Assembly (NCBI GenBank): GCA_934255405.1
Contig: CAKQNT010000007.1
Location: forward strand, 286-64,285
Length of the DNA stretch: 64,000 nt
Direction of reading: 5' to 3'
Origin: an uncultured Alphaproteobacteria bacterium
GTDB taxonomy: Bacteria; Pseudomonadota; Alphaproteobacteria; RF32; CAG-239
The position numbers and the translations under genes are program-made. Under the pieces are notes generated by a model. That model made no database searches, had not been told where the DNA came from, and worked only from the letters and a program-made list of their open reading frames with translations. Each line of letters starts with the position of its first letter. Position 1 is the first letter of the stretch. Shown one piece after another: positions 48,490-62,837 of this stretch.

Positions 48490-48565
<76 letters not shown>

Positions 48566-48695: not shown

Positions 48696-49757
48696 TTATT
48701 GATTGAAAGTTTTTTCTAAAGCCGAGCGTTTTTGATCATCAAGAACGTGAGCATATATCGCGGTAGTTTTAATATCCGCGTGGCCGGCTATTTTTTGAGC
48801 GACACGGATATCACCGGTTGATTTGACAATCCAAGTTATGGCGGTGTGCCGCAGGGTGTGAAAATTAGTGTAAGGAAGTTTGGGATCTTTGAGATTGCCA
48901 TTGGCATCATAAAATATGGAATGCCAAGCGTGCTTGATGTCAGATACGGGCTTTCCATGGTAGTTAAATACATATTCATTTATTCGCGGCAATGTTTGCA
49001 ACAGATCTTTTAATTTACCAATCATGGGAATGGTGTGGTTTTTGCCGCCAACGGTGGTTCGGTCTTTGACTTGAACAGTAATGGTATTGTTGACAAAGTC
49101 AATTTGCGACCATTTCAACTTAAGGACGGTCCCTCGGCGAAAGCCGGTGTGGAGAGCGGTGAATATAATTGGTTTTAGGTGTTCGGGGGCGCGGTCTATA
49201 ATTGTTTGCGCGGTTTCCCAATCCTTGAGGTATTTTATATTTTCAGCAGGAACAGGCAGCTTAAATTTAATGGGGTTAGCTAAATTTGTTTTGGCTTCCC
49301 AATAATCGTTGGCCAAGTTCCTGATCGCGGACAAAATGGATAATTCTCGGTTGATTGTGCCGTTTTTTACGGTTTTGCGCCGCAATGCGACATAATCGGA
49401 TAAAACTTTTTTATCAATCTCATGAAAATATGTTACGCCGAGATTTTTCTTCATATTGGCAATTCTTAATAATACGTTGCGAGGCTTTGCTTGAAATTGG
49501 GCTCTTTCTTCAAAATAGCGGCCAAAAGCCTCATCCAGCGTTATGCCGGGCAACTCGCCGTTTGCAGCGGCTCGGCTTTTCTTCTGAATTTCTTCAATGC
49601 GGTGGAGGCAGTATTTGGCTGCCTCTGCTTCTGATATTTTGCCAGTTGACGTTCTAAGCTGTACTCTTTCTCCGGTTTCAGCGATGAAAGAGATATACGC
49701 GTGGTAGATACCGTTTCTGGTGAATAAGCGGTACGGTATACTGTGTTTCTTTGCCAA
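48696..49757 (-). CDS. int: tyrosine-type site-specific integrase
   Basis: N-terminal arm-type SAM-like domain plus catalytic R..HxxR..Y residues (HTLRHTAITW, AIYAHV). Confidence 0.85.
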   Translation of the reverse strand: MAKKHSIPYRLFTRNGIYHAYISFIAETGERVQLRTSTGKISEAEAAKYCLHRIEEIQKKSRAAANGELPGITLDEAFGRYFEERAQFQAKPRNVLLRIANMKKNLGVTYFHEIDKKVLSDYVALRRKTVKNGTINRELSILSAIRNLANDYWEAKTNLANPIKFKLPVPAENIKYLKDWETAQTIIDRAPEHLKPIIFTALHTGFRRGTVLKLKWSQIDFVNNTITVQVKDRTTVGGKNHTIPMIGKLKDLLQTLPRINEYVFNYHGKPVSDIKHAWHSIFYDANGNLKDPKLPYTNFHTLRHTAITWIVKSTGDIRVAQKIAGHADIKTTAIYAHVLDDQKRSALEKTFNQ

Positions 49758-49927
49758 CGGTGTAAATCCTCGATTTGGAAAAATAGAGAGCCGCCAATTT
49801 CCTTAAAGGCTATCTCTCCAGAGTTTATAACCTTGCGGAACTTGTATCTCGTAAGCCTCAATTCTTCCCTAGCCTCTTTTTCTGATAGAAAAGGGTTTAA
49901 ACCATTTTCACTATTTTGTCGAGTCAT
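49541..49927 (-). CDS. xis: excisionase/AlpA-like HTH protein (ORF overlaps the integrase 5' end by ~217 nt)
   Basis: LSEKEAREELRLTRYKFRKVINSGEIAFKEIGGSLFFQIEDLHRW resembles MerR/AlpA-type excisionase HTH. Confidence 0.4.
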   Translation of the reverse strand: MTRQNSENGLNPFLSEKEAREELRLTRYKFRKVINSGEIAFKEIGGSLFFQIEDLHRWQRNTVYRTAYSPETVSTTRISLSSLKPEKEYSLERQLAKYQKQRQPNTASTALKKFRRKAEPLQTASCPA

Positions 49928-54427: not shown

Positions 54428-55117
54428 TCAATAAGGTATGCTGTCCTGCAAATCCTCAACTTTCATAACTGCCTTGTCCAAAGCGGCCAAGACCGCATCC
54501 TTGTAAGACCGTTCGCCTATATCGGCGAGCGACTGGGCAATTTCATTGGCGTATTTTACCGCCACATGATCCTGCGGTATCTTATCCAGCTCTTGCAGAC
54601 GAATAATTGTTGCCTCGGCTTTCTTGATAAGGTTATCGCGATATTCCTGGGTTTCTTTTTTTACGGCATTCGTGTGGGCTCTTTTGGCGTTGGTGAGGTC
54701 TTTTTTGACCTCTTTCACAGCATCATCGCTATCCGGCAAGTCTTCTCCGGCGTAGATATACAACCCTAAGCCATGTCTTGCGCAGGCCTTGGTCAGTGAC
54801 CGCTGAATTGTTTTGTTGACATCAAAGCTTGTAACACTATCGGCAGGAATAGACTTGTTTTTGAAATCCATAACCGGCAAATATTCAATGTGCTCGATGT
54901 TGTTTACAGTCACTCCGGTTTTAACCCAGCAGGTTTTGCCATCTGTGAAATAATTCCAGCCGTTGGCGTTTTCATACACGGTATAAATGGCATCAGGGTG
55001 GATCTTTTTAATTTCTTGCCAAGCCCAAGCCCAAGAAAGATAAGTCATGTTGTTCTTCTTTTCCGTGTGTTCGTTCACATTAATGTTGTTTAGCTCTATA
55101 AAGTAGTTGTTTTCCAT
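54428..55117 (-). CDS. Rad52-like single-strand annealing protein (Sak/DUF1071-type)
   Basis: YLSWAWAWQEIKKIHPDA ... GLGLYIYAGEDLP blocks resemble the DUF1071/Sak family. Confidence 0.45.
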   Translation of the reverse strand: MENNYFIELNNINVNEHTEKKNNMTYLSWAWAWQEIKKIHPDAIYTVYENANGWNYFTDGKTCWVKTGVTVNNIEHIEYLPVMDFKNKSIPADSVTSFDVNKTIQRSLTKACARHGLGLYIYAGEDLPDSDDAVKEVKKDLTNAKRAHTNAVKKETQEYRDNLIKKAEATIIRLQELDKIPQDHVAVKYANEIAQSLADIGERSYKDAVLAALDKAVMKVEDLQDSIPY

Positions 55118-55335
55118 TTTCCATTCCTTTTAATGTGTTTTCGGTCTTATCCAAAATTTCATACAATACACTGGAGTTGTTCCAATCCCGGTTTGGTAAA
55201 TCCATTATCTTATCGTATATCCAAACCAAGGTTTCTGTTGCCTTTTGTCCGTCTGTCATGGCTCACCTCAAATATTGAATTAAAAAATACACCGGTATAA
55301 ACCCTGCCGCGAATCCGGCGTAAAAAGAGGTGATG

Positions 55336-55584
55336 CTATCTAGTAACTTCATTGGGTTTTGCCTTTCGATAAACGGTTAAAGTGTCATTTTGCTTTTTTT
55401 TGAAGCCATCAATCAGGTAGCCCTGAAGGTAAAGATTGGTGACATAAATTTTAAAGTTGGCCTGATTTCTGAAACTGCTACGCCGATACGCATCTTCAAT
55501 GGTTCGGGGACGTGGAAAACAGTCCAAGGCTCTTTTTTCATTTGCCGTCAGCATTAACCGGCTCCAGATCAAACAATTCTTCAA
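55336..55584 (-). CDS. phage hypothetical protein
   Basis: ORF. Confidence 0.3.
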   Translation of the reverse strand: MKNCLIWSRLMLTANEKRALDCFPRPRTIEDAYRRSSFRNQANFKIYVTNLYLQGYLIDGFKKKQNDTLTVYRKAKPNEVTR

Positions 55585-55892
55585 ACATCTTGTTGGTGTA
55601 AGCTAAAATGTCTTTGTTCATGCTCCCCTCCTTGTTGCAAACAAATTGTTTTGACGGTGTCCAGCCATTGGTCGGCTCCCTGATTTACAAAGTGGCGAAA
55701 CTCAACCGCTTCTGCCTTGTCTTCGACACCAAGGTCATCGGCCAACTCCCAGTCGGACTTTGCATTGAGGTAATCGCAAAATTCAAACAGCAAGTTCATT
55801 TTGCGGCTATGGCTCAGGCGGTTCTCAAATTTGCTAACCTCAAACCACAACAGCATCTCATTGGCTTTTTGTTGCATTTCTATTTTTTGCAT
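55581..55892 (-). CDS. phage hypothetical protein (first gene of the leftward early operon)
   Basis: ORF directly downstream of the PL-like promoter/operator. Confidence 0.3.
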   Translation of the reverse strand: MQKIEMQQKANEMLLWFEVSKFENRLSHSRKMNLLFEFCDYLNAKSDWELADDLGVEDKAEAVEFRHFVNQGADQWLDTVKTICLQQGGEHEQRHFSLHQQDV

Positions 55893-55920
55893 TTTTTTGT
55901 TACCTCACATCGTTTCGATA

Positions 55921-55966
55921 TAGCAAATATATAGCAGATATGCTAAATGTCAATAGCAAAAATGCT
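55921..55966 (-). promoter_or_regulatory. PL-like early promoter with repressor operator
   Basis: minus-strand TTGCTATTGACATTTAGCATATCTGCTATATATTTGCTA is near-identical to the PR-like region at 57570-57612. Confidence 0.5.
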
Positions 55967-56046
55967 GCAATGTGCAATAAAAATGCGATGAAAATGCTAA
56001 TTGTTTGAAAATACAAATAAAAAAGTTGGAATTTTTTTGTGCGAAA

Positions 56047-56076
56047 GCAAAAAAAATAGCCCCTAAAAAGGGGCTA
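56047..56076 (-). terminator. terminator of the cI-lipoprotein transcript
   Basis: TAGCCCCT-aaaa-AGGGGCTA hairpin followed on the minus strand by an 8-nt T-run. Confidence 0.55.
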
Positions 56077-56437
56077 AGAGGGGGTGTTGCGCCTATCTAT
56101 TAAAACTAAAGGATTGATTGGAGGTGCAATGTTGAGAATTTTTTGTACTCTGACACCTCAGATTTATATGGGTGCTATCAAGCATTGGATATTTGCCGAA
56201 CACATCCTGAACATAGTTTGCGAAAGTATCTATATCATTATACTCATTTGATAATAAAGATCCTTGATATACAATGTCCTTGGTTTGGTAGTCCATAATC
56301 ATTGACATAAATGTGATGCTGTAATGATTAACTACGGCATTATGATAGCCAGTTATACCATAGTCATACTCAACGTTTGTGCGGCTGGTCGCAAAATAAT
56401 TACCGTTATATGAGGTGTCAGCAATGCCGTTGTAATA

Positions 56438-56815
56438 TCATGAGGAAGGGAGGTTGCCAGAATAATAAGTCGATGCATTTCCCTGCATGTTTCCAAAAGT
56501 ATTTGTATTTATAGAGTTAATGCCGGTTTTTCCCCATATAGGGATAGTGTCTACAGTTTGCCAATTCTTAGTCTGGATGCCATAAACAAAGCCATAGTCG
56601 GAATTTTTGTTGGCTGAAACAATTCTAAAGCCATAGCTTTTTAATTGTTCTTCGAAAAATAGTTTTAATTTTGTTGTTGCAACATTTTTATCCGGCGAAA
56701 CTACCTTTATGGTTTTATTGCCACCGGTATCTATTGTGCTATTTATTTTTAATTCATATTGGGGAGAGGCACATCCACAAACTAAAACCAATAAATAATA
56801 TGCAAACTTTTTCAT
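56438..56815 (-). CDS. prophage lipoprotein co-transcribed with the repressor (continues in-frame past a TGA to 56093)
   Basis: signal/lipobox-like LLVLVCGCASP; start overlaps the cI stop; the in-frame downstream ORF 56093-56308 shares its Y/N/G-rich composition. Confidence 0.45.
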   Translation of the reverse strand: MKKFAYYLLVLVCGCASPQYELKINSTIDTGGNKTIKVVSPDKNVATTKLKLFFEEQLKSYGFRIVSANKNSDYGFVYGIQTKNWQTVDTIPIWGKTGINSINTNTFGNMQGNASTYYSGNLPSS

Positions 56816-57510
56816 TAGACCCTCCGACCATTGAGAATATAGACGATTTTGCCAACTATTTGGATTTCGCCGATTTCGGCGGTGATAGTGGAATAGCTGG
56901 GGTTGTCCGATTTGATGTCAATGCCGCTGAGGCCGGCCTGAAGGCGTTTGACGGCCAGCCCGGTGCTCATGCGAATGATATACAGACCATCTGAACTAAC
57001 AAAATTGTTGGAGATATCGACAAGGACCCAATCGCCATCATTGATAGTGGGAATCATGCTATCACCTTGGACGCGAAGCATTTTAACGCATTCCGGGGCA
57101 ATGTTGGTGATGGCTTTGAACTCGGCGATGGGCAGATGCCATTGGCCGCAGACTTTTTCGGGGAGATTGTCAATTCCGCCGCCGCAACAGGCGGTGGCAT
57201 CTATCATTTCAATAATGACTTCATCTTTTTTGAATAAAGAGCCTATTTTTTCGGCAACCATGGCAACGCCGGTCATGTGTGCTGGCAAAATCGTTTCATC
57301 AGTGAGTTCTTGCTCATCTACGTTCAGCAATATAGCGAGCCTATGTCTGAAGCCTTCATCAAGTCTTTTAGGCGATTTCTCTTTAACAAACTTTTGTAAA
57401 TAGCTTGGATTCTTGCCCAGCTTGATAGAAATGCTATTATAGCTCAAACCTCTCTCAGCCACAAGTTCCCCAACTCGCCGCTTAATTTCTTCAACCTTAC
57501 TCATAATCAT
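56815..57510 (-). CDS. cI/LexA-like phage repressor (HTH plus S24 peptidase domain)
   Basis: N-terminal HTH (RGLSYNSISIKLGKNPSYLQKF), C-terminal S24 Ser/Lys dyad (GDSMIPTI ... VKRL). Confidence 0.8.
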   Translation of the reverse strand: MIMSKVEEIKRRVGELVAERGLSYNSISIKLGKNPSYLQKFVKEKSPKRLDEGFRHRLAILLNVDEQELTDETILPAHMTGVAMVAEKIGSLFKKDEVIIEMIDATACCGGGIDNLPEKVCGQWHLPIAEFKAITNIAPECVKMLRVQGDSMIPTINDGDWVLVDISNNFVSSDGLYIIRMSTGLAVKRLQAGLSGIDIKSDNPSYSTITAEIGEIQIVGKIVYILNGRRV

Positions 57511-57569
57511 TCTCCTTAATTATAGTATAGCATATATGCCAAGAAAGTAAAGTTGTTGATTGTAGCGTT

Positions 57570-57612
57570 TTTGCTATTGACTTTTAGCAAAAATACTATA
57601 TATTTGCTATTG
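57570..57612 (+). promoter_or_regulatory. PR-like promoter/operator for the cro-like gene
   Basis: TTTTTGCTA-N8-TAGCAAAAA inverted repeat overlapping a TTGACT-N16-TATATT promoter; GGAGG RBS at 57612. Confidence 0.55.
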
Positions 57613-57621
57613 GAGGCAAAA

Positions 57622-57837
57622 ATGGTAAGCAATGAAGAATTTAAAAATATAGTTACAGCTTTCTTGAATAGAACCGGCCTATCACAGACTGCTTTTGGCA
57701 TTCGAGCCAAAAATGACCCATCTTTTTACTCAAGAATTATGTCAGGCCAAGAAGTCAAAGAAAGTGGCAAGCAACAAGTTTTGGACTTTATCAATAATTA
57801 CGAGAAAGGGAAAAACGATGATCAAGCTGATAATTAA
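57622..57837 (+). CDS. Cro/CII-like small HTH regulator
   Basis: 71-aa ORF divergent from cI with HTH-like GLSQTAFGIRAKNDPSFYSRI. Confidence 0.5.
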   Translation: MVSNEEFKNIVTAFLNRTGLSQTAFGIRAKNDPSFYSRIMSGQEVKESGKQQVLDFINNYEKGKNDDQADN

Positions 57838-57891
57838 GTTTTTGGAAAGACGCGGTTATGCGGTGTTGAAGCTCAGCCACAAAACAGTGGG

Positions 57892-58284
57892 TTGGGATAT
57901 TCGCGGCAACAAATACAGTGTGCACAAGAGATAGACGAGATGGCGGCTCCAGAGCATAGATTGCAGGTTTGGGTTATTCAATACCTCAGGCTCAACGGGG
58001 TGTTTTGCTTTGCTATTCCCAATGGCGGCAGGCGAGATTTGCGCACCGGAGCGATGCTCAAAAAAGAGGGAGTGCTGGCCGGAGTTGCTGATTTAGCTTT
58101 GTTGTTGCCCGGCGGCGAAACAGTTTTTGTTGAGCTTAAGAACGGCGGCAAGGGAGTACAGAGCTATAGCCAAAAAGTGTTTCAGAGCAGAGTTGAGGGG
58201 TTGGGCTTTACTTATTTGGTATGGCGCAACGTTCAGGACTGCATAGATTTTGTTAAGGGTTACAAAAAGGTTTTGACCAAATGA
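57892..58284 (+). CDS. VRR-NUC domain nuclease
   Basis: G..CF.IPNGG ... GV.DL.LL.PGGETVFVELK.G.G..S..Q pattern of the VRR-NUC (PD-D/ExK) family. Confidence 0.6.
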   Translation: MGYSRQQIQCAQEIDEMAAPEHRLQVWVIQYLRLNGVFCFAIPNGGRRDLRTGAMLKKEGVLAGVADLALLLPGGETVFVELKNGGKGVQSYSQKVFQSRVEGLGFTYLVWRNVQDCIDFVKGYKKVLTK

Positions 58285-58610
58285 AAGAATGGACTGACAC
58301 CGGGATTGTGGAGTGGCACAAAAAATTTTTCCCCAAAGCCACAATGCAAACCCAGTTATTGAAGATTGAAAGCGAGATGCGCGAAGTTCACATGGCCAGC
58401 GGCTATGACAATTTTTGGGAAGAGATTGCGGACGTGTATATCGCGGCGACGGCGGCTGAAATGCGTTTTGGGTCAGAGATGGCCAAGATAGTAAGGCGGC
58501 AGATACAGATTGTTGCCGGCGAAAAGCTATGGCCGAACGTAAACGCCAAAATGGCAATTAATGTTAATCGTAAATTTAAGGGGGATCATCATGTTGAGAA
58601 AGTTGCTTGA
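58281..58610 (+). CDS. MazG-like nucleotide pyrophosphohydrolase (putative)
   Basis: LLKIESEMREV ... WEEIADVYIAATA resembles MazG EE.GE...EE.GD motifs. Confidence 0.35.
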   Translation: MKEWTDTGIVEWHKKFFPKATMQTQLLKIESEMREVHMASGYDNFWEEIADVYIAATAAEMRFGSEMAKIVRRQIQIVAGEKLWPNVNAKMAINVNRKFKGDHHVEKVA

Positions 58611-61213: not shown

Positions 61214-61549
61214 ATGGGTGTGGGCAATAATGGCAATCTAATTCCCTTGAGTGAAAGAAGCAAGGAAGATGCTTTTGAGATACGCTCCAGGGGTGGTAAA
61301 GCATGCGCAACCGCTCAAAGACGGCGCAAACGCTTGAGAGAAACGCTTGAAGAGCTATTGGCTAAAGGTAACACTCAAGAAGATATTTGCCAAATGTTGA
61401 TTAGTGGAGAGTTTCCGGCAAAGACATTTGAGGTTATCAGGGATACGGTGGGTGAGAAACCGGCCACTGATATAACCGGCACATTGGATATTACCCAAGC
61501 ATTGGTGAGGTTTGTAGATGACGGAAGTGACGGTGGAGATACCCAGTAA
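61214..61549 (+). CDS. putative terminase small subunit
   Basis: position immediately upstream of the large terminase; basic RRRKRLRE region; the ORF-track start at 61166 lies inside the hairpin, so the start is taken at MGVGNNG. Confidence 0.3.
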   Translation: MGVGNNGNLIPLSERSKEDAFEIRSRGGKACATAQRRRKRLRETLEELLAKGNTQEDICQMLISGEFPAKTFEVIRDTVGEKPATDITGTLDITQALVRFVDDGSDGGDTQ

Positions 61550-62837
61550 GTTTAAGCCTCTGCTGTGTGAAAGTTATCGCAACAAGCTGTATTATGGCGG
61601 ACGAGCCGGCGGAAAGTCGTTTGCTTTTGCCGACAGTCTGTTATTGCTGGGGCGCACAAAACAGTTGTTCATCGCCTGCGTGCGCGAGGTTCAAAACTCG
61701 ATTAAGGATTCTGTTTACAAGCTGCTAAAAGATCGGGCAGAAAATTATAAATTTGACGATTACAGGTTTTATGAAGACCGGATTGAAAATATTATAACCG
61801 GCACGAGATTTGTCTTTAAGGGATTAAAAGACCAAAACAAGCAAAATATTAAATCTCTTGAAGGTGTTGATATATGTTGGATTGAAGAGGGACAAAGCAT
61901 CAGCAAGGCCAGCTGGGAAGTGCTTAACCCAACTATTCGTAAAAAAGGCTCGGAAATTTGGGTTTCTATGAACCGCGAAGAAGAAAACGACCCGATCTGG
62001 GTGGCGGTTGCGGCAAACTCTGACGAGCGCACCTTTGTGTGCAAAGTTAATTATTATGATAATCCATATTGCCCGGAAGAAATGCGCTATTTGGCTGAAA
62101 AAAGCAAAAGCGAAAATTACGAGGATTATTTGCATATCTGGGAGGGCGAACCGGTCCAGCAAGGAAACACCAAGCTAATTGGCGGCAAGGCGGTGGTAAA
62201 AGCCTTTGAGCCTAAGATGGATAGTTCAACCTCGCCGCTGATTATCGGTTTGGATATCGCCCGGTTTGGCGACGACACCACGGTGTTTTGTTTCCGCAAA
62301 GGGCGGTGGTGCTATCGGTTTGACAGCTACACGCACAAGAGCGTGGTTGAGGTGGCGAATATCGCTACTAATTTGATTAAAGAGTTTCAGCCGGCGCGGT
62401 TGTTTTTGGATGACGGCGGTGTCGGCGGTGGGGTCTATGATATTTTGAAAGACCGCGGATTTGGTGAAGTCGTGCGCGGTGTGAATTTTGGCGGTAATGC
62501 CATTGATGACGAGCGTTACACCAACCGCCGGGCTGAAATGTGGGATTGTGTTCGGGAATGGCTGACCCAGACGGTGCAACTGCCAAACGACGACCGTTTG
62601 CTTGACGATCTATGTGCTGTCAACAAAAAGTATGACCGCCGCGGCAGATTGCAGTTGGAGAGCAAGGAAGAAGTCAAGAAGCGTTTGGGACGCTCTCCGG
62701 ACAAGGCCGACGCTTTGGCTCTGACCTTCGCCGAGCCGGTGTATGACGTTGGCAAACCGCGAATGTACGGAAATGGCAATGTTTCTTTTGAAGAATTATT
62801 TGCTTTGGACGCAGCGAGAAAGGATAACACATGGTAA
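61518..62837 (+). CDS. terL: phage terminase large subunit (PBSX/Terminase_6 type)
   Basis: N-terminal ATPase Walker A-like YYGGRAGGKSFA, CWIEEGQ Walker B; C-terminal RNase-H-like nuclease (LDIARFGDDTTV). Confidence 0.8.
   Translation: MTEVTVEIPSKFKPLLCESYRNKLYYGGRAGGKSFAFADSLLLLGRTKQLFIACVREVQNSIKDSVYKLLKDRAENYKFDDYRFYEDRIENIITGTRFVFKGLKDQNKQNIKSLEGVDICWIEEGQSISKASWEVLNPTIRKKGSEIWVSMNREEENDPIWVAVAANSDERTFVCKVNYYDNPYCPEEMRYLAEKSKSENYEDYLHIWEGEPVQQGNTKLIGGKAVVKAFEPKMDSSTSPLIIGLDIARFGDDTTVFCFRKGRWCYRFDSYTHKSVVEVANIATNLIKEFQPARLFLDDGGVGGGVYDILKDRGFGEVVRGVNFGGNAIDDERYTNRRAEMWDCVREWLTQTVQLPNDDRLLDDLCAVNKKYDRRGRLQLESKEEVKKRLGRSPDKADALALTFAEPVYDVGKPRMYGNGNVSFEELFALDAARKDNTW

Follow-up and report, generated by a model that had tools for sequence, protein, structure and literature searches.

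Two intergenic regions that flank the operon of a cI-type repressor gene carry almost the same sequence, and the question raised by this locus is what that likeness means. The locus lies in a prophage on contig CAKQNT010000007.1 (assembly GCA_934255405.1), from an uncultured Alphaproteobacteria bacterium of the gut. The window analysed here, that is, the whole stretch of DNA, is 64,000 nt (64 kb) long, and all positions are those of the window. An earlier reading of the letters, made without database searches (hereafter the sequence-only reading), had proposed a lambda-type arrangement in which one repeated operator lets a single repressor control the left and right early promoters (PL and PR). 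This proposal finds support in the gene context, the protein folds and the comparison of related genomes, and the region is very likely a lambdoid immunity region, with repressor operators at PL and PR and lambda-type logic. This reading is carried by the divergent repressor and cro-like genes, by a repressor that combines a helix-turn-helix (HTH) domain with an S24 domain bearing a Ser/Lys dyad and a candidate cleavage site, by the same type of symmetric site overlapping both early promoters, and by the co-variation of operators among heteroimmune relatives. The elements on which the argument turns are the following.

55920-55971, minus strand: left promoter-operator module (PL/OL-like), first arm of the repeat, pointing to the leftward early operon
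56815-57504, minus strand: cI-type repressor gene, 229 aa (Pfam PF00717, Peptidase_S24, 4.7e-20; PHROG 'transcriptional repressor', 1e-30)
57559-57610, plus strand: right promoter-operator module (PR/OR-like), second arm of the repeat, pointing to the cro-like gene
57622-57837, plus strand: cro-like gene, 71 aa, coding for a small all-helical HTH protein, downstream of the right module

The repressor and cro-like genes are divergent and separated by 117 bp.

A 52-nt inverted repeat places a predicted promoter on each side of the repressor operon

A repeat search showed one inverted repeat, with 52-nt arms at 55920-55971 and 57559-57610 that are identical at 45 of 52 positions (87% complementary). 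The look-alike sequence quoted in the sequence-only reading is therefore present at both places, in the form of this repeat; the ranges given for it (55921-55966 and 57570-57612) lie inside or beside the arms, but fall a few bases short at the upstream side of each module. Pairwise alignment of the two regions, with 131 nt taken around each arm, had been named as the check on that reading, and a longer duplication unrelated to promoters as the outcome that would speak against it. The alignment showed near-identity within the 52 nt of both arms and similarity at background level beyond them; the repeat is thus limited to the two intergenic regions and does not belong to a longer duplicated segment. 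The 22-nt core of the repeat, TTTTTGCTATTGACWTTTAGCA, occurs exactly twice in the 64 kb with three mismatches allowed, the number expected from 100 shuffles being 0.00.

Each copy had been said to combine a -35 hexamer TTGAC(A/T) with a -10 hexamer TATATT. A promoter scan covering 55400-58000 (2.6 kb; matches scored out of 12) found these elements in both modules, and each copy of the repeat is predicted from its sequence to contain a near-consensus sigma-70 promoter. A further match, divergent from PR, is listed with low confidence as the promoter of the repressor gene.

55953->55926, minus strand: PL, TTGACA-16-TATATT, 11/12, the best of the 10 promoter-like matches
55948-55953, minus strand: PL -35 hexamer, TTGACA (TTGAC(A/T) is invariant here in the relatives described below)
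55926-55931, minus strand: PL -10 hexamer, TATATT
57577-57604, plus strand: PR, TTGACT-16-TATATT, 10/12, joint second of the 10 promoter-like matches
57577-57582, plus strand: PR -35 hexamer, TTGACT
57599-57604, plus strand: PR -10 hexamer, TATATT
57524-57551, minus strand: putative promoter of the repressor gene (PRM-like), TTTACT-16-TATACT, with TG before the -10 hexamer, 9/12

Might two such sequences simply resemble each other by chance? The two regions are rich in A and T, a kind of sequence in which sigma-70-like hexamers occur often: the scan gave 10 promoter-like matches where 7.1 were expected. A likeness of 45 in 52 positions is another matter, given the shuffle expectation of 0.00, and the paired architecture recurs in 17 independent loci (see below). 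Together these two observations refute chance similarity, the probability of which is practically nil.

The operator unit is predicted to be a 14-bp palindrome

The half-sites described in the sequence-only reading, TTTTGCTA and TAGCAAAA, are correct as sequences, but their pairing across the -35 hexamer is not retained. The operator unit is predicted, from the sequence and its relatives, to be the 14-bp palindrome TAGCA-N4-TGCTA. Five full sites were found, two at PL and three on the right; the earlier account had rightly placed sites at both early promoters, but had not included the third right-hand operator, at 57528-57541.

55932-55945: OL1, TAGCAGATATGCTA, perfect (0 mismatches), filling the PL spacer; the top matrix score of the window (21.2 bits)
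55954-55967: OL2, TAGCAAAAATGCTG, one mismatch, abutting the upstream side of the PL -35 hexamer; centre 22 bp from that of OL1
57585-57598: OR1, TAGCAAAAATACTA, one mismatch, in the PR spacer
57563-57576: OR2, TAGCGTTTTTGCTA, one mismatch, abutting the PR -35 hexamer; centre 22 bp from that of OR1
57528-57541: OR3, TAGCATATATGCCA, one mismatch, in the spacer of the putative cI promoter; centre 35 bp from that of OR2
55921-55925, minus strand: extra half-site (TGCTA) just 3' of the PL -10 hexamer, read from the sequence
57605-57609: extra half-site (TGCTA) just 3' of the PR -10 hexamer, read from the sequence and by comparison with relatives

Allowing at most one mismatch, TAGCANNNNTGCTA has seven matches in the 64 kb, against 2.06 expected, and no shuffle gave seven; five of the seven lie in the two operator patches. 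When the 64 kb were scored with a matrix built only from the sites of relatives, all five window sites ranked among the top six, with scores of 14.1-21.2 bits. The same matrix applied to 50 shuffles gave a mean best score of 12.2 bits, and 7.5 bits for the fifth best. At the position of OR3, the related loci L003 and L006 have a perfect TAGCATATATGCTA, and other immunity classes have a palindrome specific to their class. The position 3' of the PL -10 hexamer likewise carries a class-specific half-site in several relatives.

The pairing originally proposed, in which TTTTGCTA and TAGCAAAA face each other across the -35 hexamer (TGCTA-N8-TAGCA) and form one long palindrome per promoter, deserves consideration, as this pattern is present with 0 mismatches at both modules (55941-55958 and 57572-57589) and its symmetry at the right module, read from the sequence, reaches 9+9 bases. 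However, the gap between the -35 hexamer and the downstream half-site ranges from 2 to 5 nt in the relatives, so that an N8 pairing would become N8-N11, whereas the N4 within the 14-bp units is constant in every unit with clear symmetry; moreover, OR3 is a stand-alone 14-bp palindrome that has no N8 partner. The N8 pairing was rejected for these reasons. It is also not enriched in the window, where four matches were found against 2.08 expected, a number reached by 14 of 100 shuffles. Finally, its half-site centres would be 13 bp apart, which is unusual for an HTH dimer and disfavours it further; 9 bp is typical, as in the 434 and P22 operators. In sum, a single long palindrome at each promoter is quite unlikely.

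Of the 20 central positions (four in each of the five operators), 19 are A or T, and these central bases are presumably not contacted. The site abutting the -35 hexamer has a TTTT or AAAA centre nearly always, in all immunity classes. These A/T centres may reflect a requirement of DNA shape or a role similar to that of an UP element.

Half-sites follow the recognition helix of the repressor in related loci

Public metagenomes yielded 163 homologues of the repressor at E <= 1e-10. Regulatory regions were recovered from 27 related loci, and in 17 of them PL could be paired with PR. All 17 showed the same order of elements at PR and at PL, namely a 14-bp palindrome, TTGAC(A/T), a gap of 2-5 nt (N2-5), a second 14-bp palindrome and TATA. 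The promoter hexamers and a T-tract upstream of the -35 hexamer were the most invariant parts of the module. The half-sites, in contrast, vary among loci and do so following the sequence of the turn plus recognition helix of the repressor, alike at PL and PR; the counterpart of OR3 follows the helix class in the same manner. Seven helix classes have clear 5-4-5 half-sites; in an eighth, characterised by a canonical HTH_3 domain, the spacing is unclear.

Helix KNPSYLQKF or KNPTY(L/I)QKF: half-sites TAGCA / TGCTA
Helix KSGTYLHKF: half-sites TGTAA / TTACA
Helix RRDSYLHRF: half-sites TATCA / TGATA
Helix RKDQYIHQ(Y/F): half-sites TACTA / TAGTA
Helix RKDSYLHQY: half-sites TATTA / TAATA
Helix RGVAFMQQY: half-sites TACGA / TCGTA
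Helix PNSPAFMHKF: half-sites TACC / GGTA
Canonical HTH_3 domain (eighth class): half-sites ACACA / TGTGT, spacing unclear

The half-sites of PR and PL from the same locus are identical at a mean of 8.9 of 10 positions, versus a mean of 5.2 of 10 (maximum 8) for loci with different helices. Such co-variation of half-sites with the repressor helix would be expected of palindromes to which the repressor binds.

The invariance of the hexamers and the T-tract would also suit a simpler explanation, according to which the repeat is merely a duplicated strong promoter, copied or homogenised by recombination, the palindromes being incidental or serving a host regulator or Cro alone. Neither a host factor nor a promoter duplication, however, would explain why the half-sites of PL, PR and OR3 shift with the repressor helix and the hexamers do not. 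In the alignment of the two modules, the central N4 of the spacer site differs (AAAA at PL, TATC at PR) while the half-sites are kept, which points to selection on the half-sites and not to recent copying. The operator motif is also unlike the LexA box of Alphaproteobacteria, which is GTTC-N7-GTTC. A mere promoter duplication is thus very unlikely, and binding of the palindromes by the repressor is the preferred explanation.

The repressor family is mosaic. Relative to the window protein, the homologue P0028 is 78% identical in the C-terminal domain and 25% identical in the HTH, while other relatives show 79% identity in the HTH region and 48% in the C-terminal domain. Locus L016 has the helix KNPSYLQKF together with TAGCA sites, and its matching repressor, P0076, is only 56% identical in the C-terminal domain. 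Operator specificity is predicted by these comparisons to follow the N-terminal domain of the repressor, not the C-terminal one.

We consider it about an even chance that the locus is one allele of a series of mutually orthogonal repressor/operator pairs set on one invariant promoter scaffold. The series would belong to prophages of uncultured gut Alphaproteobacteria, in which HTH domains may have been shuffled independently of the S24 domain. The most interesting by-product of the analysis is that the relatives present naturally swapped specificities on a single scaffold, which could be tested directly. If the pairs are truly orthogonal, they would provide a direct residue-to-base recognition code, allow uncultured phages to be assigned to immunity groups from sequence only, and supply ready orthogonal switches that work with alphaproteobacterial promoters.

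Distribution of the locus

A Hadza gut metagenome contains a contig of 142 kb that encodes a protein identical to the repressor. The nine closest loci in species-representative genomes are labelled as uncultured Alphaproteobacteria, Azospirillum, Azospirillaceae or Acetobacter, with one labelled Acutalibacteraceae. A few close relatives of the repressor or Cro (P0008, P0124, L015) come from metagenome-assembled genomes labelled Bacteroidales or Acutalibacteraceae, the rest being from Alphaproteobacteria; since these loci have sigma-70 promoters and strong Shine-Dalgarno sites, the labels are probably binning errors.

Comparison of the DNA of 55300-58300 with 50,697 deposited phage genomes gave no match, and the repressor is at most 30% identical to a protein of any deposited phage. 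A search of IMG/VR for close relatives with the repressor alone gave one distant locus only. The exact scaffold TGCTATTGACW-N1-4-TAGCANNNNTGCTA had 0 matches in IMG/VR and 21 in Joint Genome Institute (JGI) metagenomes; one of these 21 (L191) also encodes a repressor homologue, and most have a single palindrome. Temperate phages of the low-GC gut Alphaproteobacteria have not been cultured, and none of the deposited phage genomes is closely related to them; this locus and its relatives suggest that they use the classical lambda-type logic. The lambda-type organisation itself is textbook knowledge, and current understanding is not overturned.

Predicted structures of the repressor and the Cro-like protein

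An AlphaFold2 (AF2) model of the repressor, made from 35 homologues, had a predicted local distance difference test (pLDDT) score of 81. Its N-terminal domain consists of five helices, residues 22-28 and 35-41 forming the HTH, and a disordered linker joins it to a C-terminal domain rich in beta structure. The nearest solved folds were the lambda-186 hybrid repressor, LexA, lambda cI (3bdn) and 186 CI. Residues S149 (in GDSM), K186 and A105-C106-C107 are invariant in an alignment across the family, and G108 is nearly so. The protein is predicted to be a two-domain repressor of the cI/LexA type, with an N-terminal HTH and a C-terminal S24 autopeptidase. The Ser/Lys dyad of the S24 domain and the invariant Ala-Cys-Cys(-Gly) of the linker are what RecA-stimulated self-cleavage requires, and make it the likely route of induction. 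The candidate self-cleavage site covers residues 105-108 (window ~57181-57192), and its sequence suggests cleavage at a Cys-Gly bond, as in UmuD, not at the Ala-Gly bond of LexA and lambda cI. In two relatives of 301 aa, P0079 and P0080, the N-terminal HTH domain is present twice in tandem, before the S24 domain.

The product of the cro-like gene gave weak sequence matches to PHROG_6223 'transcriptional repressor' (6e-4; 2.4e-5 for a relative) and to HTH_31 (0.021). Its AF2 model (pLDDT 88) has four helices, at 4-18, 22-30, 35-40 and 47-66, and its nearest folds, with template modelling (TM) scores of 0.56-0.67, are HipB, controller proteins of restriction-modification systems, SinR and the N-terminal domain of lambda repressor. 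It is predicted to be a compact, all-helical HTH protein of the XRE type, similar to 434 Cro. Its presumed recognition helix tracks the operator class in most loci. When solved structures were searched by sequence, the repressor matched through its S24 domain only, with no similarity of its N-terminal domain to any solved chain, and the cro-like product gave nothing significant; the folds of both are thus predicted ones.

A probable lambda-type switch: proposed mechanism and points against it

The analysis locates the control centre of the prophage, that is, the promoters predicted to start the lytic programme and the 14-bp sites predicted to hold them off. A repressor dimer would probably bind the TAGCA-N4-TGCTA palindromes. 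As OL2 and OR2 abut the -35 hexamers and OL1 and OR1 fill the spacers, bound repressor would exclude RNA polymerase from PL and PR, silencing both the leftward recombination/integration operon and the rightward operon of cro, replication and late genes. OR3 would let an excess of repressor, or the Cro-like protein made from PR, shut off the weak divergent promoter of the repressor gene, Cro probably acting on the same sites as the repressor. Self-cleavage of the repressor triggered by the SOS response would probably induce the prophage. The part of this scheme with the best support, which comes from site geometry and co-variation, is that repressor dimers at sites 1 and 2 would block PL and PR sterically; control of the cI promoter through OR3, site sharing by Cro and SOS induction are probable by analogy with lambda, 434 and 933W. 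We infer binding as such, the dimer stoichiometry, cooperativity and the direction of regulation at the cI promoter.

Several points weigh against this scheme. The evidence for the lambdoid interpretation is computational and consists of sequence features, models and co-variation. Of the five window sites, all but OL1 have one mismatch, and the order of affinity is not readable from the sequence. The putative cI promoter is a weak match (9/12); its equivalent in the related locus L011, TTTACA-17-TATAAT around the OR3 of that locus, is a better one. Further, OR2 lies about 11 bp from the -35 hexamer of the putative cI promoter, whereas in lambda the two abut, so that lambda-style activation by OR2-bound repressor is unsupported. 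The conserved extra half-site after each -10 hexamer forms no full site and is unaccounted for. As for Cro, the fold matches have weak Foldseek E-values (0.085 or weaker), and the tracking of operator class by its helix is imperfect, L017 having TAGCA sites and a divergent Cro.

Comparison with known systems

The locus resembles lambda in its divergent repressor and cro genes, in a repressor made of an HTH and an S24 domain (lambda cI being among its top folds), and in the use of one operator type at two early promoters, which lie ~1.6 kb apart here and 2.4 kb apart in lambda. Both have three right-hand sites, one of them over the promoter (here putative) of the repressor itself, an accessory gene and a terminator between cI and PL (rexAB in lambda), and a leftward operon that ends at the integrase. 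Unlike lambda, the sites are of 14 bp instead of 17 bp, there are only two full left sites instead of three, OR2 and OR3 are 35 bp apart and OR2 does not abut the -35 hexamer of the cI promoter; Cro is predicted to be all-helical (XRE type), while lambda Cro has a winged fold. A brief check found no N-like protein or nut pair (TATCGAAACGAT, the core of a leader hairpin described below, is present once in the window), and the locus is therefore not lambda in the narrow sense.

The 14-bp operator length is shared with 434, in which the outer bases are contacted and an A/T-rich centre is not, as is presumed here; the N-terminal domain of the repressor and Cro are all-helical HTH domains of the XRE type in 434 and P22 and, by prediction, here. 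The half-site sequence and the 5-4-5 layout differ, the 434 operator being ACAA-N6-TTGT. Phage 16-3, a rhizobial temperate phage, has operators of the form ACAA-N4/N6-TTGT, in two geometries, while the locus described here has a constant N4 and other half-sites. In that phage of an alphaproteobacterial host, as is predicted here, one repressor (the C repressor) serves both PL and PR of the control region (PMC3694467, citing Papp et al. 2002). In the Shiga-toxin phage 933W, OR has three operators and OL two, OL3 being absent (PMC3317979), and the five sites found here are likewise divided into three right and two left ones. The 933W sites, however, span 15 bp with a single base pair at their centre, and the phage infects E. 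coli.

Prophage context

The modules are embedded in the following features, listed from left to right.

48490-48565: tRNA-Thr(CGT), adjoining the integrase gene
48696-49757: tyrosine integrase, next to tRNA-Thr
49541-49927: HTH_17 excisionase-like gene
54428-55117: Sak single-strand annealing protein, following the 103-aa open reading frame (ORF) (Pfam SSAP_Sak, 3.7e-43)
55581-55892, minus strand: first gene of the leftward early operon, 103 aa (from the ORF list)
56057-56076, minus strand: intrinsic terminator (8-bp stem with 5 G-C pairs, T-run), ending the repressor operon ahead of PL
56438-56815, minus strand: lipoprotein-like ORF, 125 aa, its start overlapping the repressor stop, with LVCGC near the N-terminus read as a lipobox
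61518-62837: large terminase, on the rightward side

The leftward operon contains, in this order, the 103-aa ORF and the genes for the Sak protein, a DNA methylase, the HTH_17 excisionase-like protein and the tyrosine integrase. The prophage spans from tRNA-Thr and the integrase, at ~48.5 kb, past the end of the window. The layout is that of a lambdoid-type prophage integrated at tRNA-Thr, with the tRNA-Thr(CGT) gene as its likely attachment site. A host MurD gene adjoins the prophage; its product is 63% identical to a protein named from a metagenome-assembled genome of an alphaproteobacterium.

The product of the first PL gene is not arginine-rich and matched no family above the Pfam threshold. 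The PL leader opens with a small hairpin, UAUAUCG-AAA-CGAUGUG (55904-55920, minus strand; -4.2 kcal/mol, z -2.3), the core of which, TATCGAAACGAT, is kept in several immunity classes (L003, L006, L013, L178). Relatives with a different first PL gene have a different leader, ATAAACACAACAAC. The leader palindrome was considered as a nutL-type boxB and dropped, given its single copy in the window and a first gene that is not N-like. An Rfam scan of 55000-58500 gave only two sub-threshold matches, attributable to chance.

The lipoprotein-like ORF, which matched no Pfam or PHROG family, is probably co-transcribed with the repressor gene. It ends at an in-frame TGA (56438-56440), after which the frame continues for 115 more codons, giving a 241-codon frame at 56093-56815 (minus strand). 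The same TGA is found in an independent Hadza contig, L002, and TGA is a normal stop in the neighbouring genes, which suggests either a gene split by a nonsense codon or read-through.

The interval between repressor and PL is a variable cargo slot in the relatives (L006, 2344-4194; L011, 4690-5954; L013, 4705-6151; L175, 5260-6661; L176, 5196-5866). The cargo includes Lambda_Bor lipoproteins, a T5orf172/EcoRI-methylase-like protein, DUF6804 and a Gp49 + HTH_3 pair; the latter, in which Gp49 is a faint Pfam match, might be a toxin-antitoxin module.

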